Positions 2,511-47,844 of a stretch of DNA of 51,656 nt are shown here, piece by piece. The stretch is from a virus (Duplodnaviria > Caudoviricetes): IMG/VR virus record IMGVR_UViG_3300048893_000093, positions 1-51,656 of that record. One strand, 5' to 3'. The stretch's first letter is position 1. The number at the start of each line of letters is the position of its first letter. Under the pieces are notes generated by a model. The model did not search any database. It saw nothing but the letters and a program-made list of their open reading frames with translations, and had not been told where the DNA came from. The position numbers were made by a program, and so were the translations under genes.

Positions 2511-2518
2511 TACATTTG
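2511..2518 (+). promoter_or_regulatory. Bacteroidota-type -7 promoter box TACATTTG
   Basis: Matches TAnnTTTG, 18 nt upstream of ATG 2537. Confidence 0.55.
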
Positions 2519-2536
2519 ATGGCAAAAATTATTGCC

Positions 2537-3376
2537 ATGAAAAAACAACCCACAACAATCTGCTCACTTGTATTCTTGCTTTCGTGCTTATGCACATTCC
2601 TACATGCTCAAATCATTCCAGTAACAATTATCGAAACGCGACCCGAAGCGTTGTGTACTGGTGATACTATTGAAGTTAGATTTGTTGTATTAGCTCAATT
2701 ACAACCGAACCAAATTTTTAAAGTCGGTGTAAGGTTAGATCGAAATAATACAACATTGATCGACACACTTTTCACTGGCACGCTTTCGCAATTAACGGTA
2801 GTCGATACTATTAGTATCGGCTTGGTTTACGGCGAGAAATTGAAAATACCGAATCAGTGCCCGGTAGGTACTTGGTCAGTTAGTGGTAATATATTGTCTC
2901 CGAACCAAGTAACACTTGGTATTATTGCCTGTAATCCAATCCCACAAATAATAAGTTTTTCACCTGATACGCTTTGTCCGGGAGATACGATTTGTATTAA
3001 ACTTTACAATCCATTAAAGGATTCTTTCAATTTCAATTGGATGACTACACAAGGTGAATCTGTTATAGTGTGGACGCAGATATTAACAAGTGGTAATGAA
3101 ACAGATACGATGAACTATTGTTTCAGGACACCTGATTTTTTATATCTGTCGTGTGGCCCCGCTTTTATTGGAATTGATCTTATTAACCAGTGGCCGATAT
3201 ATATTAAATGTGGTTGTATAATAAATTGGCTTGGAATAAAACAGAACGATCCGAATAAATTAAAACCAATTTATTACGACATTATGGGTAACCGCGTAGA
3301 ACCTCAGCAAGGAATGTTTTTGATTGAGCAGAAGGGACGGGAAAAACCGCATCCAGTTATTATAACCGAACCGTAA
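2537..3376 (+). CDS. Secreted Ig/IPT-like repeat protein with T9SS-CTD-like tail (moron)
   Basis: Signal peptide MKKQ...FLHA/Q; repeats PEALCTGDTIEV and PDTLCPGDTICI; C-terminal IYYDIMGNRV...GMFLI motif. Confidence 0.6.
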   Translation: MKKQPTTICSLVFLLSCLCTFLHAQIIPVTIIETRPEALCTGDTIEVRFVVLAQLQPNQIFKVGVRLDRNNTTLIDTLFTGTLSQLTVVDTISIGLVYGEKLKIPNQCPVGTWSVSGNILSPNQVTLGIIACNPIPQIISFSPDTLCPGDTICIKLYNPLKDSFNFNWMTTQGESVIVWTQILTSGNETDTMNYCFRTPDFLYLSCGPAFIGIDLINQWPIYIKCGCIINWLGIKQNDPNKLKPIYYDIMGNRVEPQQGMFLIEQKGREKPHPVIITEP

Positions 3377-3431
3377 ACCTCAGCGAAAAAATAAATTTGG
3401 AGTTTGGTTTTATTTGTATTAATTTAGCCCT

Positions 3432-3617
3432 CGCACTCAAAGCATACATTAACATGAATCAAAATTATATCCTTCGTTCGCAGTCGCTAACCGCTCCGCT
3501 CTGTGGAACACTCGGATATAATGTGATTATGTTAAGTAGCCGCACAGAATAACGTGGCCTAAAAAGGCCCGTTTATTCTTTTTCGATACTCGCTAACGCG
3601 ACCTGTGTGTATGTTAA
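3432..3617 (+). repeat. Structured repeat A1 (bulged long hairpin with XerD-like arm plus a second hairpin)
   Basis: 3442-3472 pairs with 3514-3540; GAATAACG-TGGCCT-AAAA-AGGCC-CGTTTATTC stem; homologous to 39562-39750. Confidence 0.8.
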
Positions 3618-3645
3618 TTTAATAGTGTAATAAAATATTTTAAGA

Positions 3646-4230
3646 TCATGGCAACTTTCCATTGACCGGATAACATTTATGCATAGGTGTTATTTCGCAG
3701 GCGAGTTGTCTATGGGAAAAAAATTTCTCAGTTATTTCAGCAACTAATATTCGTTGGTCAATAATAATTTTCATTATAGATCTTATTGAAGCGTCAGTGT
3801 AGGGTAACATTTCTTCTTTTGAATTAGTGCCTTTTACTTCAAAATTTACTAATTTAAAAACACCGTCTTTGTTATAATTTTCTACACAATTATGAGATGT
3901 ATCTAACATATAATGAGCCATTCTGTTTCTTTCAGGAATAATCTTTTCAAAAGTATCTAAAAATTCAGGGTGTTCTTCAATAAATTGTTTGTAATTATTT
4001 TTTAAAATATAACCAATAGCTTCTTTCTTACCGTTAAACGTCATTCTTTTTGTGGCAAGTATTAATTGAAATAAATCACGTCTTTTATCATTGTTGTTTC
4101 CACAAAAATATCTTGATAAAAATTCATCAACATGCCTTTCTAAATAAACCAATTCACTTATAATTGAACCCCTACAAAATTCAGATAAGGTCATTAATTC
4201 CCTCATATTTTTTATTTCTAATTTTCCCAT
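3646..4230 (-). CDS. HEPN-like (MtlR-like helical fold) protein, possible RNase/defence factor
   Basis: RNRMAH fits the HEPN RX4H motif; very AT-rich; antisense to flanking structural genes. Confidence 0.55.
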   Translation of the reverse strand: MGKLEIKNMRELMTLSEFCRGSIISELVYLERHVDEFLSRYFCGNNNDKRRDLFQLILATKRMTFNGKKEAIGYILKNNYKQFIEEHPEFLDTFEKIIPERNRMAHYMLDTSHNCVENYNKDGVFKLVNFEVKGTNSKEEMLPYTDASIRSIMKIIIDQRILVAEITEKFFSHRQLACEITPMHKCYPVNGKLP

Positions 4231-4300
4231 CCCGCTAAAATAGCAATTCTCTTTTTAATCAGCCATTCCGCACATACCACCTGCCCTGCCCACAACCGAA

Positions 4301-4371
4301 GCTACTGTAACATAATGCACCATTATAATCCCGTGAAAAACGTTATCATAATTCGCATTATATTAAATAGC
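4301..4371 (+). repeat. Hairpin B1 with XerD-like arm TTATATTAAAT
   Basis: GCTACTGTAACATAATGC...GCATTATATTAAATAGC imperfect inverted repeat; homologous to 40267-40349. Confidence 0.7.
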
Positions 4372-4422
4372 CGCTATGGAATTTTTTTATGTCGATTTGG
4401 GTATTTTTTATTAATTTTATAT

Positions 4423-10654: not shown

Positions 10655-11583
10655 ACCATGAACGGCTATTTACACATAATACAAATTATATTATTTCAGA
10701 TATAATGTTTTTCGTTGATTTTAAAGTAAACTCATTTGCACGGTATCATACTGGGTAATTTGATTCGACCAGATAGCTTCCGTAGTCCTGAATTTTATTC
10801 CCTGCATCTCAACCATTGATTTAAACGGCATCCAATTAGCGTTAGTGTTTTCGCAAACAATAGTCTGCCCCAACCTTTCCTTGCACCAAGCCGTTAAATG
10901 GCTGTAATCAATGTTCTTATTGCTTTGGTTGTATTTGTGTCCTCCATGTTGATATGGCGGGTCAACAAACCATGTTGCCAACTCATTTGCCAAATCCTTG
11001 TAGCAACCGTGCTGAATAACCCAATGCCTTATTTTAAAGAGATTAGAGGCTATTAGTTTCAAGTTTTGTTTGTATGACTTAACACCCCACTCATAGGCTT
11101 TATTCCCGCCAACCGTCCCCTGTTGCAGCAAAAACCTTAGTAATTCGTATTGCTCAACACAATCCAAATCCTCCTTTATAATCCTATCGCCGGCTTTGTA
11201 ATTTGGAAATGATAACACATCTTTTTCGCTGCACTTTTGCAGGTACTTCCAAATATTAACAATGACCTCGTATTTATCAACCAACAAAATATCTCTGTCA
11301 AAATACTTCAAAGCATATCGGGCACTCCCCGCAAACGGCTCTATTATTTTCCCGTGCATAGGAGCAGGGTAATAATCAATAATCTTTGACTTGCTGCCGT
11401 AGTAACTAAACATTCTTTTTTACAATTTTCTTTAGAGCATCATTAAAGCTGATTCCCGCCACTTCCTGAATATCGGCAGCCATATCCATCAAAACGGATT
11501 TTAGCTGCTCTGTTTCTGCCTCTGTGAAGCTATACGCTATCTGTGTATCGCTTATTCCATAATCGCTGAGGTCGCTGAGGTCT
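10655..11583 (-). mobile_element. Accessory module 3 (inverted): GACCTCAGCGACCTCAGCGA - gene remnant - MTase - dif-like arm
   Basis: 11562-11583 reverse complement = AGACCTCAGCGACCTCAGCGAT; 10663-10691 reverse complement = ATATAATTTGTATTATGTGTAAATAGCCG. Confidence 0.5.
10721..11413 (-). CDS. DNA N6-adenine methyltransferase (Dam/D12-like)
   Basis: FSYYGSK, EPFAGSA (motif I) and FVDPPY (motif IV). Confidence 0.85.
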   Translation of the reverse strand: MFSYYGSKSKIIDYYPAPMHGKIIEPFAGSARYALKYFDRDILLVDKYEVIVNIWKYLQKCSEKDVLSFPNYKAGDRIIKEDLDCVEQYELLRFLLQQGTVGGNKAYEWGVKSYKQNLKLIASNLFKIRHWVIQHGCYKDLANELATWFVDPPYQHGGHKYNQSNKNIDYSHLTAWCKERLGQTIVCENTNANWMPFKSMVEMQGIKFRTTEAIWSNQITQYDTVQMSLL

Positions 11584-11780
11584 CAACACCCATCATCATC
11601 CAAAAATTTCTTTTCCTGGGCAGGTGCATTTTTCCAAACATCCCACAAGATCGACCGGCAAAAAGTAGCTAAATCCATTCCACGAGACTTTGCAATGGCG
11701 GTCATTTCAAGTTTGAATTTCATGTTTGTATTTCCTATCCAGAATTTCGGCGTAGTTGATTTGCGATAACTTCCCTTCAT
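11583..11780 (-). CDS. Small ribbon-helix-helix-like DNA-binding protein
   Basis: Strand-helix-helix pattern (...LEMTAIAKSRGMDLATFCRSIL); divergent from head operon. Confidence 0.5.
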   Translation of the reverse strand: MKGSYRKSTTPKFWIGNTNMKFKLEMTAIAKSRGMDLATFCRSILWDVWKNAPAQEKKFLDDDGC

Positions 11781-11794
11781 TAAAAAGTGGTTTG

Positions 11795-11865
11795 CACAAA
11801 TATAAAAAAAGTTAGTATAATATGCTAACTTATAAAAAATACTTTTTAACTGTGGGTATTTTTAC
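11795..11865. promoter_or_regulatory. Divergent late promoter module with palindromic operator AAGTTAGTATAATATGCTAACTT (11809-11831)
   Basis: Near copy at 46250-46320; leftward TATATTTG box. Confidence 0.7.
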
Positions 11866-30187: not shown

Positions 30188-30657
30188 TGACCGACTTCCA
30201 CTCCATAACCGAATCAGTCCGCGAATTTGAACAATCATTCACGCCCTCACAACCGCGAATATTGCGATTTTATAATCGTAAGCGGAAATGCGTTAAAACT
30301 ATAACATCGACTGATTACATCTATTGGTACAATAATCGACATGCATCCTGGCAAACTGAAAATGAATATATTATTGCGATTGAAAATGAATTGAGGCAAA
30401 ATGATGAGCAGAAGCGATATTCATTTATAGAAGTATTTTCGATGATCGGCGAATTTATCCGCCGCCATTATATACGCGGTAACCGATTGGCCCCGATTTC
30501 GTTTGAGGGGCAAATGCAGGATGATCCGTATTTATCGCAACGACTTATTGTCATTATACCGGTTTGCGATTGGCGAAAGGTGATGAGGTGGACGCGACAA
30601 AATCGGTATATTACAATAGAACAATTTATTAACCAATATAAAAACCAAACCTCATGA
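30187..30657 (+). CDS. Hypothetical protein
   Basis: 156-aa ORF coupled to both neighbours. Confidence 0.55.
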   Translation: MTDFHSITESVREFEQSFTPSQPRILRFYNRKRKCVKTITSTDYIYWYNNRHASWQTENEYIIAIENELRQNDEQKRYSFIEVFSMIGEFIRRHYIRGNRLAPISFEGQMQDDPYLSQRLIVIIPVCDWRKVMRWTRQNRYITIEQFINQYKNQTS

Positions 30658-31403
30658 CACAAATTTTCAAAGATTATCAAGAATTTTCTCAAAGAGAAGA
30701 TAAAACAGTTAACGGCGTTTCTCAAAATTTCGCTGATAATAACCCGGATTATAAAAATCAGTTTAATAATGAAGGCTGTTACAATTGCCATGATTGCAGC
30801 GGTTGCATCGGTTGCAGCGATTGCAGCGGTTGCAGCGGTTGCAGCGGTTGCAGCGATTGCATCGGTTGCAGCGGTTGCAGCGGTTGCCGCGGTTGCAGCG
30901 GTTGCAGCGGTTGCAGCGGTTGCAGCGGTTGCCGCGGTTGCAGCGATTGCAGCGGTTGCATCGGTTGCAGCGATTGCAGCGATTGCAGCGGTTGCGGCGG
31001 TTGCAGCGATTGCCGCGATTGCCGCGGTTGCCGCGGTTGCATAGGTTTGTATTATAAAAACGGTTATAATGAAATTAATAAATTAGAAATTCCCATTATC
31101 GAAAACATCCATCAAAAAATATTAGAAGCATGTAAACCTCCTTATGCTTTAAAAATGGATAAATGGCATACATGTGAAACAACTCATTGTCGTGCTGGTT
31201 GGGTAGAAATAATTGCTGGTGAGGCTGGCTCGAAACTCGCTGCGCAAACCTCAACCTTATTCGCCGCTATACAAATTTATAAAAAATCTTCGCCTAATAT
31301 TCGTGTTTTTCCACCGAGATTTTTTGAAAGCGATAAAATAGCAATGGAAGATATAAAGAGATGTGCGGAATTGGAGATTGAAGAAAATAGTAAAATCAAA
31401 TAA
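30654..31403 (+). CDS. Cys-rich (CXX)30 repeat protein with C-terminal [13 protein letters not shown] domain
   Basis: Only frame with unique flanking domains across the repeat. Confidence 0.75.
30777..31046. repeat. 9-bp coding tandem repeat x30 (consensus TGCAGCGGT)
   Basis: Counted directly. Confidence 0.95.
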
Positions 31404-37387: not shown

Positions 37388-39505
37388 ATGATCGACACGA
37401 TAATATTAGATGAATCAGAAATTTTAGTTAAACAACTAAAAAATATTGTTACTAAAAACATTCCGCAAATTTCCACCATCAAACCAAGCGATTGGGTTGA
37501 ACAAAATATAGTAATGGGTAAGCCTTTTCCTGGGCCGTTTCGATATAAGCGTACCCCTTATACCAGAGAAATTATAGATATACTTTCACCCGACAGTTCA
37601 TGCTGGGGATGTGCCGTGAAGAAAGGCGGCCAGATTGGTTTTTCGGCTGGCGTAATTTATCCCGGTATTTGTTGGATCATAAAAAATAATCCTGGTAATA
37701 CATCACTAAGTGTTGGCGCACCGGAACTAATAAAGAAAGCCACTGATAAATTAGATGCTTGTATAAATTCGGCTGGACTGAGGGATTACATTAAACCGTC
37801 ATCATTAAGGAAAAGAAATAATAAAACAGGCGATACTAATACGCAAAAGGATTTTACCGGCGGTTTCGCAATGATATGGAGTGCAAATAATCATAAAAAT
37901 ATCCGTCAGGTGGATTTGCAAAACCAATTTAATGATGACTATGTTGCGATAAAAAAAGCATCAAAAGAATCTGGAAGTACTGATAAAAAATTAGACCAAC
38001 GGAGCGCAGCTTATAAAGATACTAAGAAGCGGATGGATATTTCAACGCCAGAATTAATTGGCAGTACTATTGATGAGGCATTTGACAAGGGAGATAAGCG
38101 CCGGTATTTAATCCCATGCCCTTGCTGTAATGATCTGATAACAATTGATTGGATCATGCCATCCGTTTGTAGACCTGGTAAAATGGCTGGTATAACATGG
38201 AAAATGAAAGAGGGTGACGGGGGATTAGATAAAGAAAGTGTGGGTTATGTGTGTCCGTTGTGTGATGGTTTTTTTACTGATAAAAATAAACAGGATTGGT
38301 TGAATAAGGGTGAATGGGTGGCATTTGATATTCAGAAAATTGAAGGGTATAGGAGTTATCATATCTCAGCATTATACGCGCCGATTGGAATGGACGGTTG
38401 GGATAAGTATGTGCAGGATTGGATTGATATTCACCCGAAAGGACAGCCGCGTAAAGAAGAGGAATACCAATGGTTTGTCAATGAAGTGTTAGGTGAAAGT
38501 TACGAACCAAAAACAACTGCAATCCAACCCCGCCAGCTTGAAAAAAACATTCAACCTTATGATATTGGTGTTGTGCCCGATGAACTGAGCGTGAAACATG
38601 GTAATGGTCATATCGTTTTAATCACCTGTGCATGTGATTTAGGGGGCCGGTATGTCGGGGATCAATTAAACAGCAAGGAAGATGATGCCCGGCTGGATTG
38701 GGAAATAGTGGCCCATGCAGAAAATGGCACTACATATAGCATTGACCACGGTAGTATCGGCACATTTACCAATGCATACTTGGGTAAAAAAGATGAGGGA
38801 CGTGAATTATGGTCTTATGATCCGAGTAAAACTAATAATGTTTGGAAGGAATTGGATTTAATTTTGGCGCGCACATACGTAGTTGGCAAACATGGCCGGG
38901 GCGCAAACGCCATTACCAATACGATGAAGATACAATTAACCGGTATAGATAGCGGGTTCGCTGATAAATTCGTGTGGAACTATATTGATAGTCGGAGCGG
39001 CAGGTTTAAAATCGTTGGGTTAAAGGGAAATAAAGAATCAACGCCGCGTATTCACGGCGCGAATCAGCGAAACTGGACGTTAGGTAAGAGCCGGGCCAAT
39101 CTGTATATGATCGAAGTGGGCCACCTGAAAGATATAATTGCAAGCCGAATTTCGCTCCGATGGGACGGTTCAAACGCGTCAAGTCAACCAGGCGGGTATA
39201 TGAATTTTCCGCGCCGGGCCGATGGAAAATACGAAAATGAAAATTATTTTGAGCATTTTGAGGCCGAACACCGGGTTATTGATGAGAAAAAAGGAACGTT
39301 CATTTGGAAAAAGAAAAGTCCGAATGTGCAAAATCACGTTTTCGATTTGAACGTTTACAATATGGCCCTGACAGAAATTTTAATGCACCATGTGTTTAAA
39401 GAAATTGGCGTGGTTGAAAAAGATGAACAAACCTGGTGGCGCTTTTCTGAATGGTTGATTAAACAGTGGGGATTGACCTCAGCTTTAAATAGACCTCAGC
39501 GATAA
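37388..39505 (+). CDS. terL: Terminase large subunit, lambda gpA family
   Basis: RTPY.REI, K..QIG.S, ISTP, CPCC...CP.C, IDSG and NH.FD motifs. Confidence 0.92.
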   Translation: MIDTIILDESEILVKQLKNIVTKNIPQISTIKPSDWVEQNIVMGKPFPGPFRYKRTPYTREIIDILSPDSSCWGCAVKKGGQIGFSAGVIYPGICWIIKNNPGNTSLSVGAPELIKKATDKLDACINSAGLRDYIKPSSLRKRNNKTGDTNTQKDFTGGFAMIWSANNHKNIRQVDLQNQFNDDYVAIKKASKESGSTDKKLDQRSAAYKDTKKRMDISTPELIGSTIDEAFDKGDKRRYLIPCPCCNDLITIDWIMPSVCRPGKMAGITWKMKEGDGGLDKESVGYVCPLCDGFFTDKNKQDWLNKGEWVAFDIQKIEGYRSYHISALYAPIGMDGWDKYVQDWIDIHPKGQPRKEEEYQWFVNEVLGESYEPKTTAIQPRQLEKNIQPYDIGVVPDELSVKHGNGHIVLITCACDLGGRYVGDQLNSKEDDARLDWEIVAHAENGTTYSIDHGSIGTFTNAYLGKKDEGRELWSYDPSKTNNVWKELDLILARTYVVGKHGRGANAITNTMKIQLTGIDSGFADKFVWNYIDSRSGRFKIVGLKGNKESTPRIHGANQRNWTLGKSRANLYMIEVGHLKDIIASRISLRWDGSNASSQPGGYMNFPRRADGKYENENYFEHFEAEHRVIDEKKGTFIWKKKSPNVQNHVFDLNVYNMALTEILMHHVFKEIGVVEKDEQTWWRFSEWLIKQWGLTSALNRPQR

Positions 39506-39561
39506 AAATAAATTTGCAAATCCCGTTTTGTTGCCGTATATTTGTTTCGCTTAAAAAGCCC

Positions 39562-39750
39562 CGCACACCAAAGCTAAATTTAACATGAACGCTCCATTAT
39601 ATCTTTCGTCGCCTTCGCTAATCGCTCGGCTTATAGAGGCACTCAGATATAATGGCGTTATGTGTAAATAGCCGCCCCGAATAGCGTAAACGAAAACGTT
39701 TCGCTTATTCTCTGGCCTGATCTCGCTAACGCTCCTGTGTGTAAGGTTAA
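39562..39750 (+). repeat. Structured repeat A2
   Basis: 39573-39604 pairs with 39645-39672; second stem GAATAGCG-TAAACG-AAAA-CGTTT-CGCTTATTC; preceded by TATATTTG at 39537. Confidence 0.8.
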
Positions 39751-39762
39751 CCGTTAGGCTCA

Positions 39763-39963
39763 GTGCGAATGTTTATTTTCAATTCAGATTTTGAATCAGA
39801 CAAAAATTTTCACAAAGAAATTCGTGACAGATCAATTATTTATGATCCGACTACAAATGAAAATTTTGATAAAATAGACGCTGAAATATCTAAATTAAAA
39901 AAAATAGGTATTGAAATAAAATACTCAGCTAAGTTCGATTCCGTTGTCCTTGAGAAACAGTAA
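39763..39963 (+). CDS. Small hypothetical protein (module cargo)
   Basis: 66-aa AT-rich ORF; ATG at 39769 possible. Confidence 0.45.
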   Translation: MRMFIFNSDFESDKNFHKEIRDRSIIYDPTTNENFDKIDAEISKLKKIGIEIKYSAKFDSVVLEKQ

Positions 39964-40116
39964 ATATTCATTTACTGCATTTGGATTACCGGCAGTAGGT
40001 TGTAATTTAAGTGAATACCCTCCATTAACCGTGTTAATTTGGCCCATGACTTTAGTATCATTTTTTAATTTGTTGATAATGTCTAATTGTTCTTGAGTGA
40101 TGAAATAAGTTTTCAT
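39925..40116 (-). CDS. Small hypothetical protein (module cargo)
   Basis: 63-aa ORF with A-rich leader; convergent overlap with previous ORF. Confidence 0.5.
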   Translation of the reverse strand: MKTYFITQEQLDIINKLKNDTKVMGQINTVNGGYSLKLQPTAGNPNAVNEYLLFLKDNGIELS

Positions 40117-40147
40117 TGTTTAAGTTGTTTTTAAATGATGAATTAAT

Positions 40148-40182
40148 GAGGCTCGACATTCTAAGTGTCGGGCTTCTCTTTT
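40148..40182 (+). terminator. Terminator-like hairpin
   Basis: GAGGCTCGACA-loop-TGTCGGGCTTC followed by TCTTTT. Confidence 0.55.
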
Positions 40183-40266
40183 ATAAAGGTATCTAAAATT
40201 TGAACTAACATTAACATCAACTTATTAGTATCGCGCAAACCCAACCCTACGCCACCCACCTCCCAA

Positions 40267-40349
40267 GCTATTTATACATAACGCTCCATTATAATGCGTC
40301 ACTAACAAAACCGTTAGTTTGTATTATAATCGACGTTATATTAAATAGC
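40267..40349 (+). repeat. Hairpin B2 with XerD-like arm
   Basis: GCTATTTATACATAACG...CGTTATATTAAATAGC. Confidence 0.75.
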
Positions 40350-40387
40350 CGCGCGTGGAATTTTTAATTGTGGTAAAATGGAAATGA

Positions 40388-41077
40388 TTAGAGGGCCACC
40401 GGCTTGTTGAAATAATTAACATAAAACTCAAAACTTTCAGGATCGCATATCCGGCGCAGCAATTGCAAGTCTTTATCTGGCCCACCGTGAATATCGTATC
40501 TTTCAAGCCTGGAAGTATGCATATCGCCACCGGTTAACCCTATTCCATGCTTAATACCTAGGCAAATATGCTGTTTTGGGGCAAAATTGACCAATTTTAG
40601 GCGCTTTCCATCAGCATGTTTTGCTATGTCAGATAGGTGTGTATCCAAATATGGCTCGTGATCCGGCGGCCAATTGAAGCTCATATCGGGCCGAATCAAT
40701 GTTGACATGGCGCAAGTTCGGCGCGGATGACCCATTTCAAAGTAAGAAAAGATACGAATATTATAATAAATTGTGTAAGAAGTGGAGAAAAGTTCGGGTT
40801 TTCCAGCATTTTCCCAGGATTTTATCATTGTTTCTAGGTAATTTGGAGCATACCAGTCATCATCCTCCCAGAAAGCAATAACATCTAATCCACGACCGCG
40901 CAAATATTCATAACCGCGCCGGTAACGCTGCGTTATATCTTTGTTGGTGGATTCCGGTGGGTAATCCATGAAAAGAATAATGTCCGGCTGAATTGTTTGC
41001 AATTTTATCAGCCGTTCACATTGTTTTCGGAATAACGGACGGTCGCCGCGTGTTGGGATTAGGATAGCGAGTTTCAA
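40388..41077 (-). CDS. Glycosyltransferase, GT-A / GT2-like
   Basis: ILIPTRGDRP, WEDDDWY; paralogue of 45052-45891. Confidence 0.8.
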   Translation of the reverse strand: MKLAILIPTRGDRPLFRKQCERLIKLQTIQPDIILFMDYPPESTNKDITQRYRRGYEYLRGRGLDVIAFWEDDDWYAPNYLETMIKSWENAGKPELFSTSYTIYYNIRIFSYFEMGHPRRTCAMSTLIRPDMSFNWPPDHEPYLDTHLSDIAKHADGKRLKLVNFAPKQHICLGIKHGIGLTGGDMHTSRLERYDIHGGPDKDLQLLRRICDPESFEFYVNYFNKPVAL

Positions 41078-41162: not shown

Positions 41163-41813
41163 TCACTGCTTCGCGGGCACATCCCATTTATCAGGTGAAA
41201 ATTCAGGTGGATTTAATATGCGGGTTCCTCTCCCAGGATGAAAAATAAAATCTGAGAAAGGAACGTTGATGCAAAAAAATCGGTGCGGACTGGTTTCAAG
41301 TTGCGTCATCGTATTAATACATGGCGCGCCGTGATTTATAAAAGCTGGCAATAAAATGTATTTCATTTTATCTATCAGCGCAAAATGTGGATGCAAATAA
41401 CGAATACCGTCTTTGTCAACGTTACCGCCATCATTATTTACCATCACAACTCTGCCAACTCCAAAACATTTATCCCGGTTACCATCCATCAGGATAGCCA
41501 TGTATTCTATTATGCCGTGACGGCGTATAATTACATCGGAATCAATTAAAAGGAAGTAGCGCGTCTTACAAAATCCAATTCCTAAATTCATTCCTGGCCC
41601 ATGCCCGATATTTTGACGATAATTTTTAACGAGCGTGATGTCATCGCGTAAGGTTTGCGTATAAGTAAAACAGTCGTTGGTTTCATCACTACCATCAATG
41701 ATAATTATTTTCAACTTAGGATACTCAAGTCGGATAGATTCAACGCAAGAACGAAGTATATCTGCGGTGTTGTAAGAAACAATTATAGCGGTTATGTTGT
41801 CGGTCATCTCCAA
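41163..41813 (-). CDS. Glycosyltransferase family 2
   Basis: IIVSYN, IIDGS, NIGHG.G.N and LIDSD. Confidence 0.85.
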   Translation of the reverse strand: MEMTDNITAIIVSYNTADILRSCVESIRLEYPKLKIIIIDGSDETNDCFTYTQTLRDDITLVKNYRQNIGHGPGMNLGIGFCKTRYFLLIDSDVIIRRHGIIEYMAILMDGNRDKCFGVGRVVMVNNDGGNVDKDGIRYLHPHFALIDKMKYILLPAFINHGAPCINTMTQLETSPHRFFCINVPFSDFIFHPGRGTRILNPPEFSPDKWDVPAKQ

Positions 41814-42772
41814 TACCTCCCAAAAATACTCAATAAATATTTACCTGTCGCCTCAAAACTGTGCTTTTCTGTTACCCAATTATAAGTATCGGTTTGATGC
41901 CGTGAAATTTCAGCCGGGGATAATTCCAATAGATGCGAAACGTTATCAATGAATCTTTGTTCGGTATTACAAACGAAAAACGGGCAAATTCTTTCAGTCG
42001 GATGCGTTCCTTTGCGCGGCGATCCGTATGCCGATTCGTAAACATCCAAATTTATATTTTGCGTAACCACAATTTTACCAGCCGCCGCCGCTTCAAAAGC
42101 AGTAACACCCCAGCAACCGTATGGTTTACCGTTTAATTCCGGTTTAAATAACTCAATATAAATATCATAATTATTCATCCTGGTAAGTTGTTCTGTGTGA
42201 GAAACACGATCATTTGAGTGCATAAGCGTGAATGGCTGTTTTACCTTTCCCAACATTTCCAGTATTTTTTCAGTTCCTTTCACTTCCGGGTTACTTGGAA
42301 AATGACCAATCGCATAAGGAGCATGAATTTCGTGCCCGAATTTTGGCGTACCGTTCATTTCAAATGGAGCAGCAAAATAATGAATATTTTTTGCGCCAAG
42401 TTGCATAAATTCACACTCATCAGTAAGAGTGAATTTGACGCGCGGATTAAAAACGGCGTTATGTGCTTCCGGTGCGCGCCTGTATGCTGATCCGGTATAT
42501 CCTACGCAAATCGTGCGGTTACCTATCACACTTTCCAATTCATTCAATAGCCAAATTTCACCGTGAGTTAAAATAATGAGTGAATCTGTTGGCGAAGACG
42601 AAATGACGCGGCGCAATCCATCTATTGTAGTGTGTGTACTGGTTTCTGCATACCCAAATGGGTGCGGTGTAATATAATATGATGAAGCATCGGCACCGGC
42701 AGCGCGGAGGGATTTACAAATGTTGAATTCCAAATTGGCCCAATCCGATATGCAGCATAGGATTATTTTCAT
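41804..42772 (-). CDS. Glycosyltransferase, GT-B (GT4-like)
   Basis: H.PSNP..KGT, DIYIE and G...FEAAAAGK.VV. Confidence 0.75.
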   Translation of the reverse strand: MKIILCCISDWANLEFNICKSLRAAGADASSYYITPHPFGYAETSTHTTIDGLRRVISSSPTDSLIILTHGEIWLLNELESVIGNRTICVGYTGSAYRRAPEAHNAVFNPRVKFTLTDECEFMQLGAKNIHYFAAPFEMNGTPKFGHEIHAPYAIGHFPSNPEVKGTEKILEMLGKVKQPFTLMHSNDRVSHTEQLTRMNNYDIYIELFKPELNGKPYGCWGVTAFEAAAAGKIVVTQNINLDVYESAYGSPRKGTHPTERICPFFVCNTEQRFIDNVSHLLELSPAEISRHQTDTYNWVTEKHSFEATGKYLLSIFGRYWR

Positions 42773-43542
42773 AATTCAGTAATTAACGGTTTCGATTTTC
42801 GCTTCGTGATCTCCCCCAGAACCTTATTTTTATATTCCTGCCCCAACCTTCGTTGCGTTCCATTCGGTAAATTTTGATTGTACAAATATATGGGTTCCCG
42901 GATTATTCCAATGCGTTTTTTACCACACATTTCTAAACATGAAAACATAACCTCGCTTTCCGTGGTCGTATCTATCCAATTGCCGTTAATTAAAAAATCA
43001 CAGATTGGTATTTGTCTAAATAATTCTATCCTGAATGTATTTGGTGCGGTGGAACGGTATGGTACGGTGCGATACGCGCGCGTCTCATGTATCTCGTCCG
43101 GGAAATCCAATTCAAAATCCACCGGCAACATTTTACCGTATTGATTAATCCAATTACCATACGTCATCCATTTGCCATTTTGATATTCGCGGCAAATTCT
43201 ATTCAGTGCGCATGGTAAAAGTTCGTCATCCAATCCAACAAATATCACCACATCATTATCCTGACCATAAGTCGAAATAGCAGCATGGCGACAAAAAGCA
43301 GCCCCGTGATTTTGCTTATACGACATGGTTTGAAATAGATGTTTGAACCTTGGATTGTTGTGAATAAAAGTTTCGTAAAATTGATTTATTTCTGAAAGTG
43401 TATTATCGGTGCTGGCATCGTCGATGACAATAATTTTTATTTTACCGTTATCGTAATGCTGGTTTACGATGGATTTTAAGCACGGGAATACGTAGGGCGC
43501 ACAATTGTAGCCGCTCACCACAATTATAAAATTAATCTTCAT
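42769..43542 (-). CDS. Glycosyltransferase family 2
   Basis: GYN, IDDASTD, GLDD, WMTYG. Confidence 0.88.
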   Translation of the reverse strand: MKINFIIVVSGYNCAPYVFPCLKSIVNQHYDNGKIKIIVIDDASTDNTLSEINQFYETFIHNNPRFKHLFQTMSYKQNHGAAFCRHAAISTYGQDNDVVIFVGLDDELLPCALNRICREYQNGKWMTYGNWINQYGKMLPVDFELDFPDEIHETRAYRTVPYRSTAPNTFRIELFRQIPICDFLINGNWIDTTTESEVMFSCLEMCGKKRIGIIREPIYLYNQNLPNGTQRRLGQEYKNKVLGEITKRKSKPLITEL

Positions 43543-43581
43543 ACGGCTTATATGTCATTAAAATTAATATTATGATGAAAA

Positions 43582-44325
43582 TTACAAGCATTCCAACGGT
43601 TTTTTCGGTTCTAATCCCTTCACAAATGCCAACTCCGAATCCCTCTGTTCCTGCGTGAACCTGCGCGTTATTGCTAACGGATTCATATTATTGTATTCGT
43701 AAATAACATCCAGTATCGGCACTATGTGATCTTTTCCAGCCAATTCCATTAAGCAATAAAGCATATTAATGTCGGGATAAATTGTTTTTTGCTTAGGAAA
43801 TAAATCAGCATCGGTTAAGTGATAATATAATTCTTTTCTGAATGATCGCAAATGAATAAATTTCCAATCCTGGTGCCGGGCCGGTTTATCTTCGTATTTA
43901 ATTGTATTCTCATCAAAACAAACCTGGCCCGTATCTTTAATAATGTAATTGCCGTATGTTAGCCAGCAATCGGAGGATTGATAAGCGAGATTAAGTGTTT
44001 CAAGCGCGTTTGGCAATAAGCGGTCGTCGAGGTCGAGCCATACGATAACGTCGAAATTAATAGTGTGATTTATTCTTTTTAGCGCATCGTGTCTGCATTT
44101 CACAATACCTTTATTTCTGAATTCGTATTCGGCACACCATTTTAAATCTTTTGTAGCTCTCAAATATTTTTGAATAACATCCCTGCTATTATCAGAACTT
44201 GCATCATCTATAACGATTAACTCAAAATTCCTATAAGTTTGCGCCTCAATCGAAGTTAAACAATCTTCAACGTATTTTTCGACGTTGTAACCGCTTGCCA
44301 AAATAAGAAATTTTACTTCCACCAT
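43582..44325 (-). CDS. Glycosyltransferase family 2
   Basis: Probable start 44325; GYN.EKY, IDDASSD, LDLDD, WLTYG; paralogue of 42769-43542. Confidence 0.88.
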   Translation of the reverse strand: MVEVKFLILASGYNVEKYVEDCLTSIEAQTYRNFELIVIDDASSDNSRDVIQKYLRATKDLKWCAEYEFRNKGIVKCRHDALKRINHTINFDVIVWLDLDDRLLPNALETLNLAYQSSDCWLTYGNYIIKDTGQVCFDENTIKYEDKPARHQDWKFIHLRSFRKELYYHLTDADLFPKQKTIYPDINMLYCLMELAGKDHIVPILDVIYEYNNMNPLAITRRFTQEQRDSELAFVKGLEPKKPLECL

Positions 44326-44439
44326 AATAAAACTACTATAACCGTTATCCAAAAAACTGCAATTACCGCGCCAATAAATAAGCACCCATTACGCGCGTCT
44401 TTATCCCATTTTATATTATGTTCGTCGAATGGCATTGTA

Positions 44440-45051: not shown

Positions 45052-45891
45052 TTAAAATCTGCTATTAATTTTTCGACTTGTATGTTTATCACCACTCATT
45101 ACTAACGATTCATAAAACTCCGCACCATCCCCGCAAACTCCGCGCAACCAACTTCCATCTGCATCCACCTTATTATAATGCGCATTATCTTCGTTATGCG
45201 CCCCCCCCGCAACCATTCCGGTATTATGTTTTATTCCGATACAAATATGTTTTGCTGGTATCCAGGTTTTTCCAGGGTATTTCCAAAGTGCAGCGTCTAA
45301 GTAAGCATCATTGTCTTTGGGCCATTTTAAATCCATAATTTTGCGCGTAACCATTGTACTCATTGCGCTGGCCTTGCTTCGATGGGCCAATACCATATAA
45401 CGGCGTGAAAAGATATGATAATAAACAGTTTGACCTATCCCGAAAAGTGATGGTCGACCTATGCGCATCCATTCACCAATCATTAATTCGATATATTCTG
45501 GCGAATACCAATCGTCATCCTCCCAGAAAATAATTACATCGCAACCCAACGCGAATAATCGCTCACATCCAATTCGATAACGGTACGTAACGTCTATATC
45601 TTCGCTTAATGGAAGGTCTGAAATAATTTCAACGTGATCTGGTTGTCTTGTTTGAGCATTAATAAGTGAAAGCGCCTGCTCTAAAAATACCGGCCTGTTC
45701 CCGCGCGTAGGTATCAATACGCCGATTTTAAAATTTAATTTTACAGGTTTTAATCGTTTCAAATGACCGCGATTCGCCAAATCTTCGGCGCGACCTGGCG
45801 TGAAATGAGATTCATTTACAAGATCACCAGTTTTGAAAATTTTATTTCCCGATCCAGAAACGGCACATGATATTACTTTGTATTCTATCAT
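45052..45891 (-). CDS. Glycosyltransferase GT2-like with N-terminal domain homologous to the post-MCP protein
   Basis: VLIPTRGNRP, WEDDDWY; residues 1-47 align with the 14466-14753 protein. Confidence 0.8.
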   Translation of the reverse strand: MIEYKVISCAVSGSGNKIFKTGDLVNESHFTPGRAEDLANRGHLKRLKPVKLNFKIGVLIPTRGNRPVFLEQALSLINAQTRQPDHVEIISDLPLSEDIDVTYRYRIGCERLFALGCDVIIFWEDDDWYSPEYIELMIGEWMRIGRPSLFGIGQTVYYHIFSRRYMVLAHRSKASAMSTMVTRKIMDLKWPKDNDAYLDAALWKYPGKTWIPAKHICIGIKHNTGMVAGGAHNEDNAHYNKVDADGSWLRGVCGDGAEFYESLVMSGDKHTSRKINSRF

Positions 45892-46249: not shown

Positions 46250-46320
46250 AACAAATGTAAAAAAAGTTAGCATATTATACTAACTTATAAAAAATATATT
46301 TTCAACCCCCGTAGTTTTAC
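46250..46320. promoter_or_regulatory. Divergent late promoter module with operator AAGTTAGCATATTATACTAACTT (46264-46286)
   Basis: Near copy of 11795-11865. Confidence 0.7.
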
Positions 46321-46338: not shown

Positions 46339-47844
46339 ATGTCGGCAGTTGGATCAAACAATGTAGCGTCAATAGTTGGTTACCAACTCTCTGTTTTACT
46401 TCAAAATTCAACTTCAAATTTACCACAGCGTGTAGCCGTTCTTTGCGAGGCAAACCACGCCAATCAGGATAGTTTAGATGTTTCGGAATGGGAAGCCACA
46501 TCGTTAAAAGCAGTTGGTCTGCGTTATGGTTTTGGTTCACCGGCATATCAGATTGCCAGGATAATGATGCCGATTTTAAACGGTATTCCTTTAGTTTTTT
46601 ATCCACAATCCGAAGCAGCCGGGGCAACTGCAAAAGTTTATGAAATAACTCCCGTTGGTACAGCGACTTCCAGCGCAACCCACACTATAAAAATTGATGG
46701 GCGCGATGGATTGGATGCGCAATTTTACAATATCACAATTAACCAGGGGGATTCATCCGACCAAATAACTGATAAAATTACCGATGCCGTAAATTCAGTA
46801 TTGGGTGCGCCAATGTCGGCCACTGATACAGATTACGTAAATACTTTCACATCAAAATGGAGAGGTGAAACTGCAAACGCTTTAACTGTTAGCGTCGATA
46901 CCAACGGAAACGATGCCGGGATTACATATATCATTAACAGCATCCAAAATGGTGCTGGCGTTCCATCAATAGCCGATGCACTTGCTTTGATGGAACCCAA
47001 ATGGAATACAATCGGCATAAATTCTTACGGAACAAATACAACTATTTGCAGCGCGCTTGAAGCATGGACAGGTATTCCTGATCCGGATGCACCAACTGGC
47101 CGTTATATTGGAATTGTAATGAAACCGATTATCTGGCTTACCGGTTCTGTTGATGAAGATCCGTCATCATTTACTGACCCGCGTAAGGCCCAGGTTGCTA
47201 TATCAATTTCACCTGCTCCGCTTGGTTTGATTTTACCGATGGAAGTAGCAGCAAGCGATGGCGGTACATGGGCAGTTATCGCACAGGATAATCCGGCATT
47301 GGATGTTCTGAATAAGCGCCTTGTTGATATTCCGGCACCTACATTGATCGGCGTAATGTCAAATTACAATGACCGCGATAGAATTGTGAAAAAAGGATGT
47401 TCCACCGTTGATCTGATAAATGGAAATTATGTAATGAAAGACCCTATTACAACTTTCCATCCCGATGGTGACCTTCGCCCAGCATGGAGATGGCGCAGGG
47501 ATTTGATGGTTGATTTCAATGTGAGGTTTCGTTATAAAGTTCTTGAAGATATTTTTGTTGTTGGTAAAATTATTGCCAATGATTCAGATTCAGTTCAAAA
47601 CGGCGAAATAATTAAACCAAAAGACTGGAAGCAAATTTTAATTACTTCTTTCTTTGCAGGGTTAGTTTCGGACGGACTGATTGCTGATTTGGATTTTTCA
47701 GTTGCATCTTTGCAAGTTTCAATTGACCAAAATAATCCAAACCGTTTCAATACATTTTTCAGGTATAAAAAAACAGGCATTGCCAGGATTTCAGCAACAG
47801 AAGCTGAATCAGGCGTTAATTTAGGAACACCGGTAAGTATATAA
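46339..47844 (+). CDS. Tail sheath protein (Mu gpL-like)
   Basis: LPQR.A, YGFGSP, KKGCSTV, D.ITT.HP, NPNR. Confidence 0.9.
   Translation: MSAVGSNNVASIVGYQLSVLLQNSTSNLPQRVAVLCEANHANQDSLDVSEWEATSLKAVGLRYGFGSPAYQIARIMMPILNGIPLVFYPQSEAAGATAKVYEITPVGTATSSATHTIKIDGRDGLDAQFYNITINQGDSSDQITDKITDAVNSVLGAPMSATDTDYVNTFTSKWRGETANALTVSVDTNGNDAGITYIINSIQNGAGVPSIADALALMEPKWNTIGINSYGTNTTICSALEAWTGIPDPDAPTGRYIGIVMKPIIWLTGSVDEDPSSFTDPRKAQVAISISPAPLGLILPMEVAASDGGTWAVIAQDNPALDVLNKRLVDIPAPTLIGVMSNYNDRDRIVKKGCSTVDLINGNYVMKDPITTFHPDGDLRPAWRWRRDLMVDFNVRFRYKVLEDIFVVGKIIANDSDSVQNGEIIKPKDWKQILITSFFAGLVSDGLIADLDFSVASLQVSIDQNNPNRFNTFFRYKKTGIARISATEAESGVNLGTPVSI

Follow-up and report, generated by a model that had tools for sequence, protein, structure and literature searches.

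Hairpins resembling folded dif sites bound accessory modules in a tailed phage of Bacteroidota and are candidate substrates of Xer-type recombinases

How do small accessory genes come to lie between matching hairpins in a tailed phage that has no site-specific recombinase of its own? The window, by which we mean the whole stretch of 51,656 nucleotides that was analysed, is the circular 51.5-kb genome of a soil phage of Bacteroidota; it carries a terminase gene and belongs to a double-stranded DNA tailed phage. The initial annotation had recognised no site-specific recombinase here and had proposed that host Xer enzymes load accessory genes (morons) into the phage at hairpin-bounded cassettes. 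Its first point was borne out. The window gave no match to the tyrosine recombinase family PF00589 (the control profile matched 14/14 genomes) and none to the Y1 transposase family PF01797. It also gave no match to a Rep gene and, in tblastn, none to the Xer-like proteins of the hairpin-bearing loci described below, and no tRNA genes were found in it. Elements that exploit Xer recombinases are known mainly from filamentous phages of Vibrio, a few islands and Acinetobacter plasmids, and recombination sites that act as folded single strands have been described in CTXphi and integrons.

Two full modules are present (3377-4390 and 39493-40370), together with a degenerate third one on the minus strand (11581-10663). 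In both full modules the features that had been described were found at their places, with the start of the second moved by one base from 39492 to 39493. The first module consists of the following features:

3377..3386, plus strand: left motif ACCTCAGCGA, immediately downstream of the stop codon that ends ORF 2516-3376; a copy with one mismatch lies at 3301-3310
3438..3545, plus strand: hairpin A1 (covariance model 55 bits; DNA fold)
3548..3611, plus strand: remainder of element A1, a terminator-like GC stem (3556-3569) enclosed by a longer stem and followed by the conserved block CTCGCTAACGCGACCTGTGTGTA (3589-3611)
3646..4230, minus strand: cargo 1, an ORF of 194 aa
4260..4298, plus strand: C-rich, G-poor tract preceding hairpin B1
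4297..4376, plus strand: hairpin B1 (covariance model 74 bits; DNA fold), then TATGGAATTTTTTT

The second module has the same layout:

39493..39502, plus strand: left motif ACCTCAGCGA, overlapping the last codons of TerL (37388-39505); a near copy, GACCTCAGC, lies 18 nt upstream
39569..39677, plus strand: hairpin A2 (covariance model 53.3 bits; DNA fold)
39680..39743, plus strand: remainder of element A2, a stem showing compensatory changes when compared to A1, followed by CTCGCTAACGCTCCTGTGTGTA (39722-39743)
39763..40116: cargo 2, two small overlapping ORFs (39763-39963, plus strand, 66 aa; 39925-40116, minus strand, 63 aa)
40232..40264, plus strand: C-rich tract
40263..40354, plus strand: hairpin B2 (covariance model 69 bits; DNA fold), then GTGGAATTTTTAA

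In an alignment of 307 columns the A elements of the two modules share a mean column identity of 80%; for the B elements it is 76% over 216 columns, and the cargo does not align. A and B hairpins are also homologous to each other, since a single covariance model finds all four with 53-74 bits. The fold z-scores of the four full hairpins range from -1.3 to -4.6, and DNA folding predicts the conserved G in ACATGAA, which had been described as bulged, to be unpaired in both A hairpins. Within the window, TTAARTAGCCGC with at most one mismatch occurs five times compared to 0.69 expected, a number reached in 0/100 shuffles. Cargo 1 matched no family, had no relative in viral contigs and found only itself in the protein collection; the ORFs of cargo 2 likewise matched no family. 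B1 is followed by the gene of a minor tail protein (phrog_4688), for which ATG 4423 is the probable start. Neither the region of module 1 nor hairpin B2 matched GenBank phages, and two strings specific to element A had no match in viral contigs.

The third module is less complete:

11563..11581, minus strand: two tandem copies of ACCTCAGCGA at the left end, one base past the stop codon of a 65-aa ORF (11583-11780)
10721..11413, minus strand: cargo 3, a D12-class N6-adenine DNA methyltransferase with a DPPY motif
10663..10708, minus strand: partial hairpin, consisting of inner stem and loop followed by ATATAAT-TTGTA-TTATGTGTAAATAGCCG; the outer 5′ arm is missing

Its partial hairpin has 17 nt in common with the 3′ end of A2. 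It is not detected by the covariance model, and its fold is no better than that of shuffled sequences (z = -0.06). The homology of A and B, this degenerate module and the hairpin family beyond the phage make the observation larger than first noted. The same ends with different cargo, as originally suggested, are seen in modules 1, 2 and 3 and in the unrelated records G001 and L310.

The hairpin arms had been likened to the XerD half of dif. The arm sequences quoted for this are correct, and compared to a consensus derived from Bacteroidota the likeness is found in XerC and XerD arms alike. For this consensus, genome contigs were scanned with TTATAA-N6-TTATGTTAAAT, which gave at least 120 stretches in all; about 52 of the 80 that were listed carry titles with Bacteroidota taxa. 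Beyond the fixed letters, 78 dif-like sites have TTTGTC before them, TTAATA as centre and AG after them. Judged by its recurrence rather than by a position at replication termini, the consensus would represent true chromosomal dif. The 3′ half of each hairpin consists of a XerC-type arm, a centre of 5-7 nt, a XerD-type arm and AG, and the 5′ half is its imperfect complement. These 3′ halves read GGATATAA-TGTGA-TTATGTTAAGT-AGCCGC in A1 (where the unpaired G lies in the 5′ half), GATATAA-TGGCG-TTATGTGTAAAT-AGCCGC in A2, TATCATAA-TTCGCA-TTATATTAAAT-AGCCGC in B1 and TTTGTATTATAA-TCGACG-TTATATTAAAT-AG in B2. The XerD arm agrees with the 78-site consensus at 10/11 positions in A1, B1 and B2, and in A2 it contains one inserted base. 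In B2, the XerC-arm part agrees at 11/12 positions and the agreement extends through the outer XerC arm. AG ends all four hairpins.

The same hairpin was found in at least 120 metagenome stretches, 80 of which were listed. Among 86 distinct hairpins, the inner stem, which lay outside the search pattern used to collect them, is paired in 90.9% of cases and shows changes on both sides in 6/6 pairs. The covariation score of this set was as high in 0/500 shuffles. Over all pair cells 93.6% are paired, again as high in 0/500 shuffles. Genes for Xer-like tyrosine recombinases are present in 23 of the 80 listed loci, as tandem pairs where examined; PF00589 matches their products, for which the XerC/XerD models give the best scores, though below the curated cut-offs. 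A rolling-circle Rep gene (PF23343, phrog_3419) occurs in 8 of the 80 listed loci, and in 6/6 clustered loci the Rep ORF is on the hairpin strand. Five of the 80 listed loci are circular contigs with end overlaps of 94-127 nt, three of them with Rep and two with recombinases, a primase-like gene and an ORF6N gene. It is likely that the hairpin is the attachment site of these small circular replicons. In L094, a contig of Puia sp. (Chitinophagaceae), the hairpin follows a dif-like site after about 800 bp that contain a small ORF. The XerC arm is of the consensus type at the left site and of the element type at the right one, and AGCGCTTC follows as the flank at either site. The record G001 carries three hairpins and two cargos, a short array. 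A search for TerL in 10 hairpin-bearing records had no match.

We hold with moderate confidence that the modules are products of recombination and that their hairpins act as attP/attC-like substrates of Xer-type enzymes provided in trans. The hairpins would then be members of a widespread family, recombination sites that are able to fold and that mimic Bacteroidota dif. Having inverted halves, a single strand could fold into a stem that rebuilds an Xer-type site with small internal loops. A resident unit, made of the ACCTCAGCGA motif and hairpin A, might gain a cassette of cargo and hairpin B by a tyrosine-recombinase exchange between two such sites, and the product would be two hairpins in direct orientation around the cargo. 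The action of Xer-type enzymes at the hairpins, the folded single strand as their substrate and this order of events are inferences. The recombinase could be host XerC/XerD or an Xer-like pair of a co-resident element; the Xer-like pairs of the family may be the enzymes because their genes accompany the hairpin in more than a quarter of the listed loci. Both kinds of unit are represented: L238 and L265 carry the left motif with one hairpin and are empty units, modules 1, 2 and L310 carry left motif, hairpin, cargo and second hairpin and are loaded units, and the motif is common to both.

Several observations count against recombination at folded hairpins. In a tailed phage with double-stranded DNA and without a Rep gene, a single-stranded stage is not obvious. 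The centres of the four hairpins differ from each other and from the consensus TTAATA, which a classical two-strand Xer exchange would not tolerate. Module 2 is kept together with its cargo in one diverged relative whose neighbouring gene is only 53% identical; this is vertical inheritance, and module 2 is therefore old and stable. Cargo 2 has a homologous sequence in the metagenome locus L278, where it lies upstream of the hairpin; in this diverged relative CGCAAACCCAACCCTACGC of the C-rich tract is identical at 19/19 positions. Also, the strict hairpin pattern matched 1/401 sampled Bacteroidota genomes, compared to 2 matches in the reversed control. The hairpin model returned nothing at E up to 0.001 from five whole bacterial genomes, with 150 candidates scored per genome. 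The A elements contain about 140 nt of extra conserved sequence and the ACCTCAGCGA motif, which recombination at the hairpins leaves unexplained. Neither recombination events nor excision products were seen. Four soil-metagenome runs, two of which may be the source of the window, contain its sequence or parts of it as contigs; none of these is joined across a module and no junctions were listed, although assembled contigs are silent on rare excision.

A more far-reaching version of the same idea is tentative. It sees in Bacteroidota and their phages a second, independently evolved integron-like system, in which cassettes would end in a folded single-strand dif mimic. Host XerCD or dedicated tandem Xer paralogues would shuttle them among tailed phages, small circular replicons and the dif region of the chromosome, with units of the ACCTCAGCGA type as resident capture sites.

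The same enzymes might instead act on double-stranded sites, which has been proposed for the pdif modules of Acinetobacter plasmids. Two inverted Xer sites would then enclose the cargo, one being the left hairpin's 3′ half and the other the right hairpin's 5′ half, and the hairpin loops would be very short neighbouring modules. The geometry (XerC/D site, cargo, XerD/C site) is exact. Moreover, the Chitinophagaceae contig L071 carries a plain dif-like site and an inverted one about 480 bp apart around a small ORF, with no tight hairpin. The phage is double-stranded, and some complete phage records contain one duplex dif-like site each. On the other hand, the 3′ halves are near-invariant but the 5′ halves are the poorer sites, in which outer XerD-arm positions have mismatches or an extra base. 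In all family members the two halves are 13-60 nt apart with covarying inner stems, for which there would be no reason if the sites were independent. The occurrence of the family on replicons with a rolling-circle Rep, with the hairpin on the Rep coding strand, also argues against duplex sites, and we consider them rather unlikely. A candidate duplex dif-like site to the left of ORF 2516-3376 was rejected, since its 10/11 match at 2492 is no better than chance (22 such matches in the window, 17.5 in shuffles).

It could also be assumed that the hairpins chiefly serve the phage itself as Xer sites for attachment or multimer resolution, in IMEX-type lysogeny or in maintenance as a plasmid-like form, and that ordinary morons have gathered near them. 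Most other hairpin-bearing phages have a single hairpin copy. In G010, a syntenic relative labelled as a provirus, about 650 nt separate a canonical dif-like site from the downstream homologue of window 46339-47844, and the XerD arm and AGCCGCAC face the phage side. Module 2 lies in the region equivalent to this site and adjoins a block of GT2 glycosyltransferase genes; such blocks are typical of lysogenic conversion. However, four or five sites are spread over three places in the window, of which two fall within the tail-gene and early regions, and paired hairpins surround cargo in the unrelated records G001, L310, L267 and L315. TerL alone found no relative in viral contigs. Among the relatives recovered with a 501-aa protein, 0/80 loci have a hairpin, and a duplex dif-like site is convincing in the G010 record only (the regular expression gave 5 matches compared to 5 in the reversed control). 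The hairpin is therefore not the attachment site of the group: a conserved attachment site is ruled out by the 80 loci, and the wider assumption is improbable.

Syntenic relatives with empty sites, which the initial annotation had called for, exist for both full modules. In G010 the genes that flank module 1 abut, and in L381 TerL and a convergent gene nearly abut at the place of module 2. Both places are variable hot spots in relatives almost all of which lack hairpins, and a hairpin upstream of the phrog_4688 gene was found in 2/68 related loci. The hairpins may thus merely mark permissive places. They are not the general route by which this phage group acquires morons, and in this respect the original proposal did not hold.

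At the level of RNA or transcription, hairpins and C-rich tracts might frame the morons as terminators, insulators or processing sites, and the likeness to dif would be due to ancestry or coincidence. The hairpins are co-oriented with the nearest upstream ORF in 42/54 cases and with the nearest downstream ORF in 45/59. The C-rich, G-poor flanks would resemble Rho-loading tracts, and the terminator-like stem of element A shows compensatory changes between A1 and A2. Nevertheless, no Rfam family was found at the gathering threshold over the whole window, and for both modules even E up to 10 gave only chance-level matches. The near-invariant letters are precisely the two dif arms and AG, beyond mere pairing positions, and the family is linked to Xer-like recombinases, Rep genes and a chromosomal dif-like site. 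A function in RNA alone is therefore very doubtful.

The left motif ACCTCAGCGA occurs seven times in the window with at most one mismatch, compared to 1.14 expected (0/100 shuffles reach seven). Upstream of the hairpins, within 110 nt, ACCTCAGC is found at 4/91 unique hairpins, plus L238, compared to 0.14 expected and to zero in three controls. A role as an FtsK-orienting (KOPS-like) word was rejected because no polarity was seen (CCTCAGC 5 vs 4 around 17 dif-like loci, thin data). That the modules are non-autonomous HUH-type single-strand transposons, similar to palindrome-associated IS200/IS605 elements, with subterminal hairpins and ACCTCAGCGA as left cleavage or target sequence, has very little probability: hairpins of the same orientation at both ends, a short left motif directly after stop codons with repeats 9, 18 and 76 nt away, its significant link to hairpins and the Rep (HUH) proteins of some family members would suit it, but the phage has no Y1 HUH transposase (no PF01797), the left motif is present at only 5/92 hairpins, the dif-like arms would be needless for such a mechanism, and the empty site of L381 lacks ACCTCAGCGA, so that the motif was not a pre-existing target there.

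Recombination at dif-like hairpins by an enzyme in trans can be compared with known systems. As in CTXphi-type IMEX, the integrative mobile elements exploiting Xer through a folded attP(+), inverted dif-like halves fold into an imperfect stem rebuilding a XerC/XerD site, the carrier phage has no recombinase of its own, and family members are found on rolling-circle Rep replicons and, in one case, beside a chromosomal dif-like site. In the Vibrio dif consensus given in PMC12715192, ATTTAACATAA is the XerD arm in reverse complement. In contrast to these elements, the carrier is a 51.5-kb tailed double-stranded DNA phage with several internal sites that bracket cargo, and the host phylum is Bacteroidota. 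Many family members have their own Xer-like genes, and the rolling-circle Rep is absent from the window itself. A flanking dif-like site was seen for the cassette in L094 and is suggestive in the relative G010; none was seen at the window's own genome.

With integron cassettes and their attC sites, the modules share imperfect hairpins with conserved stem bases, unpaired bases and a variable loop, as well as one hairpin per cargo end in uniform orientation (modules 1 and 2, G001, L310, L267, L315). They differ in that the window has no IntI gene, attI or Pc platform, and the arrays are very short and scattered. The arms are dif-like instead of attC boxes, and no Rfam family matched, the presence of an attC model in the Rfam copy being unconfirmed. 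In pdif modules of Acinetobacter plasmids, cargo lies between inverse XerC/D and XerD/C sites without a dedicated recombinase, according to PMC7399989. Here, too, the cargo has inverted sites on both sides, the left hairpin facing it with its 3′ half and the right hairpin with its 5′ half. However, the inverted partners are tightly coupled as covarying hairpins with degenerate 5′ halves, and the carriers are phages and small circles with cargo other than resistance genes, not large plasmids. With centres of 5-7 nt and an extra base or mismatches in the outer XerD arm of the 5′ halves, the flanking sites may or may not be equivalent to full 28-bp duplex sites. Microvirus-related proviruses of Bacteroidetes, as described in PMC3091885, have no integrase and are flanked by dif-like sequences, some with an extra inverted dif-like sequence that was likened to CTXphi. 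They share with our phage the phylum, the absence of an integrase and the dif-like sites, but those proviruses are whole ssDNA viruses of 4.5-6.3 kb in chromosomes, whereas here sub-kilobase cargo lies inside a tailed phage. The same paper describes chromosome dimer resolution as hardly studied in Bacteroidota.

Our literature search found no description of such hairpins in tailed phages or in Bacteroidota. The hairpins and modules are a novel form of the known Xer-exploiting elements, IMEX and pdif modules, with an integron-like geometry. Such sites can be annotated immediately with the covariance model and the dif-like consensus. If the hairpins are active, the hijacking of Xer recombinases would reach to tailed phages and to Bacteroidota, and there would be a large family of small circular elements with the same site, some of which have their own Xer-like recombinase pair. 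Phages would then have a testable path by which small accessory genes may be gained or swapped without an integrase.

Modules 1 (3377-4390) and 2 (39493-40370) have the layout described in the initial annotation, in which an end motif and a left hairpin (A1, A2) are followed by accessory cargo, a C-rich tract and a right hairpin (B1, B2). Mean column identity is 80% for the A elements (307 columns) and 76% for the B elements (216 columns); the two modules carry unrelated cargo. The end motifs are far commoner in the window than expected by chance. Allowing at most one mismatch, TTAARTAGCCGC was found 5 times (0.69 expected) and ACCTCAGCGA 7 times (1.14 expected), counts attained in 0 of 100 shuffles each. 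A third, degenerate module comprises the following features:

11581-11563, minus strand: left end, two tandem copies of ACCTCAGCGA, one base past a stop codon
10721-11413, minus strand: cargo, D12 adenine methyltransferase gene
10708-10663, minus strand: partial hairpin, has TTATGTGTAAATAGCCG in common with A2, without the outer 5′ arm

One covariance model of 13 hairpins recovers all four window hairpins with 53-74 bits, which identifies A and B as variants of a single element. In the 5′ part, AAGCTA is followed by a sequence imperfectly complementary to the XerD-type arm, by a few bases that are unpaired or partly paired, and by an ATTATA-type inner stem. After a variable loop of 13-60 nt, the 3′ part carries a TATAA-type inner stem, a centre of 5-7 nt, TTAT(G/A)TTAA(A/G)T and AGCC(G/A)C. 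Folded as single-stranded DNA, the four full hairpins form long imperfect stems on either strand (z -1.3 to -4.6), and the G of ACATGAA, previously described as bulged, is unpaired in both A copies. The word TCGCTAA is present in both A loops, again past a terminator-like stem (3589-3599 and 39722-39732), and upstream of the hairpin of virus record G007 (locus L223, about 3655); ACCTCAGCGA contains its complement. TCGCTAA may serve as a protein-binding word or take part in long-range pairing.

As a host reference, one genome per species was scanned for TTATAA-N6-TTATGTTAAAT. At least 120 stretches matched, and about 52 of the 80 listed carry titles that we read as Bacteroidota taxa. Beyond the letters set by the pattern, the 78 usable sites agree in having TTTGTC before, TTAATA or TTTATA as centre and AG after. 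From this recurrence and form, rather than from replication termini, we infer that the consensus represents the Bacteroidota dif. Hairpin B2 reads TTTGTATTATAA-TCGACG-TTATATTAAAT-AG, with one change per arm relative to the consensus and a different centre. Thus, the XerD-like arms, proposed earlier by comparison with E. coli dif, are confirmed against genome sites, and the XerC side is dif-like too. The Vibrio dif consensus given in PMC12715192 begins with ATTTAACATAA, the reverse complement of TTATGTTAAAT. The genome sites themselves are not hairpins: the model matched with E < 0.01 in only 2 of the 80 loci, both times 0.5-0.9 kb off the dif-like site. The 7-mer AGGGTAG was directed towards the dif-like site in 17/17 occurrences, a small sample from 17 dif-like loci among L056-L135, and is a candidate FtsK-orienting word for Bacteroidota. 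A Chitinophagaceae contig (L071, 2340-2870) carries a consensus dif-like site and, about 480 bp away across a small ORF, a second dif-like site in inverse orientation; this is a chromosomal layout of the pdif-module type.

In IMG/VR, true hairpins were present in 8 of 32 loci containing TTATRTTAARTAGCCRC; the others mostly represent plain duplex dif-like sites or matches by chance. Searched as whole records, G001 contained three hairpins and G007 two, and six other records had a single one; no relative of the window terminase was found in the ten records searched. A stricter hairpin pattern matched at least 120 metagenome stretches, and the 80 obtained represent 75 unique hairpins; counts based on listed matches are lower bounds. 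The strict pattern is rare in chromosomes (1 of 401 sampled Bacteroidota genomes, compared to 2 matches for the reversed control). In an alignment of 86 distinct hairpins, which was fitted to the model so that pairing is favoured, 93.6% of cells are paired. The inner stem, left free by the search pattern, is 90.9% paired, both partners having changed in each of its 6 pairs, and none of 500 shuffles reached the observed covariation score. The flanks are alike in kind, with C-rich, G-poor tracts on both sides. Two complete phage records with terminal repeats, G418 (33.8 kb) and G419 (56.6 kb), were also noted. G418 has a single duplex dif-like site without a hairpin, and the site of G419 (in its locus L018) has a 7-nt centre and falls outside the duplex dif-like pattern used on records. 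In G416 and G417, labelled provirus, a duplex dif-like site is internal.

The window begins and ends with the same 127 bases, and IMG/VR classes the record as a virus with direct terminal repeats; the window is therefore a complete circular map, about 51.5 kb in size. Tail and baseplate proteins are encoded, and no tRNA genes were found in the window. Contigs of soil-metagenome runs hold DNA near-identical to the window, and two runs are a possible source; these data were examined at contig level, where rare excision is invisible. Landmarks used below are:

37388-39505: gpA-type large terminase
41163-44385, minus strand: GT2 glycosyltransferase block

The GT2 block is bracketed by two minus-strand paralogues, 40388-41077 and 45052-45891 (62-nt repeat; a common set of relatives matches both), one homologue of which adjoins the gene of a 501-aa protein (46339-47844) in 29-31 of 80 relatives. 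Separately, a 9-nt tandem repeat array (30731-31090, 27 register-shifted copies reported) lies within ORF 30654-31403, which suggests a product with a three-residue repeat. A 70-nt repeat of 80% identity containing a palindrome (11796-11865 and 46251-46320) lies in promoter-like regions ahead of two plus-strand genes, which start at 11871 and 46339. The repeat may be a shared operator or promoter; 11796-11841 is also matched by run contigs from other DNA.

Empty-site relatives, which the initial annotation had proposed to look for, were found for both modules. Using the phrog_4688 gene downstream of module 1, 68 related loci were obtained. The flanking gene order is kept in these loci and the gap at the place of module 1 is between about 110 and 3000 nt long; the syntenic relative G010 has no gap at all between the two flanking genes. 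Neither cargo 1 nor the 286-aa ORF 2516-3376 matched in any of the 68 loci. This ORF immediately adjoins module 1 on the left and adds another accessory gene to the hot spot; its translation has a signal-peptide-like start and no family match. A hairpin directly upstream of the phrog_4688 gene was present in only 2 of the 68 loci (the G007 record and L238), and two more gave weak model matches (26.7 bits) farther upstream. No hairpin was found in 80 further loci obtained via the 501-aa protein. At the place of module 2, the terminase gene and the convergent 40388-41077 homologue nearly abut in L381, and other relatives carry up to about 4 kb of other genes (14 of 80 loci inspected). Modules 1 and 2 therefore lie in variable hot spots, empty sites exist among the relatives, and few members of this phage group carry hairpins. 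Metagenome locus L278 has the same hairpin as module 2, homologous cargo and the same downstream gene at 53% amino-acid identity. No change is seen in the arms or in a C-rich string of 19 nt, while the loop differs. This speaks against recent mobility; the cassette is inherited, and selection acts on its site.

Of 91 unique hairpins, 4 (A1, A2, L265, L310) have the left motif ACCTCAGC no more than 110 nt upstream, against an expectation of 0.14, and L238 has it as well; as controls, the reversed word and its reverse complement yielded 0, as did the downstream side. L238 and L265 carry the motif and a single hairpin without cargo. In modules 1 and 2 and in L310, the motif and a first hairpin are followed by one to three small ORFs, and a C-rich tract then precedes a second hairpin. 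Capture sites would be expected to show such a pattern in their empty and loaded states. The motif is mostly located right past a stop codon and is absent from the L381 empty site; in the three modules of the window it is repeated nearby, at distances of 9, 18 and 76 nt. A function as polarity (KOPS-like) word was tested and was not supported.

Companion genes were surveyed in the 80 metagenome loci, 25 of which are shorter than 2.5 kb; many contigs are too short to hold neighbours. Xer-like tyrosine recombinase genes occur in 23 loci, as tandem pairs of about 300 aa each in the loci examined (e.g. L262, L264). The proteins match PF00589 and score best against XerC/XerD models, below the curated (equivalog) cut-offs. 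A large protein with a DnaG-type primase part was found in 15 loci, an ORF6N (antirepressor-like) protein directly before the hairpin in 10, and a rolling-circle replication initiator (Rep; PF23343, phrog_3419) in 8, on the hairpin's strand in 6 of 6 clustered cases; 47 loci have none of the four. Five contigs are self-closing with overlaps of 94-127 nt:

L300 (5078 nt), L324 (3269 nt), L299 (7524 nt): circular, Rep of PF23343 / phrog_3419, hairpin on the Rep coding strand
L307, L311 (8150 and 8675 nt): circular, tandem Xer-like pair, DnaG-like primase fusion, ORF6N, one dif-mimic hairpin

The Rep circles are candidate single-stranded elements integrating at dif. L262 and L264 have the gene set of L307 and L311, and this type has the appearance of a separate family of integrative plasmids or satellites. 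In a Puia sp. locus (L094), a consensus dif-like site is followed by about 800 bp with a small ORF and then a hairpin with an element-type XerC arm, AGCGCTTC standing directly after both sites, as would be expected once an element has integrated at dif.

It is possible that the same chemistry acts on duplex sites, as in pdif-like modules. The module geometry and the L071 layout agree with this, but the degenerate 5′ halves, the tightly coupled, covarying stems and the association with Rep argue against it. That the hairpins are the phage's own attachment or resolution sites is suggested by one provirus. About 650 nt upstream of its 46339-47844 homologue, it has a canonical dif-like site whose phage side bears AGCCGCAC:

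L010 9565-9603, minus strand: G010 dif-like site TTTTGTCTTATAA-TTAATA-TTATGTTAAAT-AGCCGCAC; provirus syntenic with the window ends nearby, XerD side towards the phage

Here, a tailed phage may have integrated at dif; however, G010 is the sole one of 80 relatives with such a site. The ORF beyond it on the non-phage side has no Pfam match. An RNA or terminator role fits the co-orientation of hairpin and gene (42/54 and 45/59), but disagrees with a conservation that is dif-specific and with the lack of Rfam matches. Reading the modules as HUH transposons would account for the left motif but not for the dif arms, and the Y1 transposase family PF01797 has no match in the window.

The most likely mechanism is cassette capture on folded sites. 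A resident unit (motif with hairpin A and terminator-like stem) would recombine with a circular cassette (cargo with hairpin B), and exchange at the border of the XerC-type arm would leave two complete hairpins in direct orientation. The differing centres would stop duplex recombination among sites of one genome and would agree better with the exchange of one strand on a folded substrate, finished by replication, as is established for CTXphi (PMC3442271, PMC3089051). The tyrosine recombinase family PF00589 has no match in the window; the enzyme would act in trans, supplied by host XerC/XerD or by a co-resident element encoding an Xer-like pair. We infer every step of this mechanism, as well as the host, the active strand and the enzyme.

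Among known systems, the nearest parallels are CTXphi-type IMEX, the attC cassettes of integrons, the pdif modules of Acinetobacter and, in Bacteroidetes, the microvirus proviruses flanked by dif (PMC3091885). The available portion of PMC12715192 covers IMEX of Vibrio inoviruses and double jelly-roll phages only. In the full texts searched, neither dif-like hairpins of tailed phages nor hairpin-bounded cassettes of Bacteroidota were reported. The companion genes, the circles and the L094 and L071 layouts speak for the hairpin as a site at which mobile DNA recombines, and the companion contexts argue that the mobile DNA carrying it includes DNA with a single-stranded stage.
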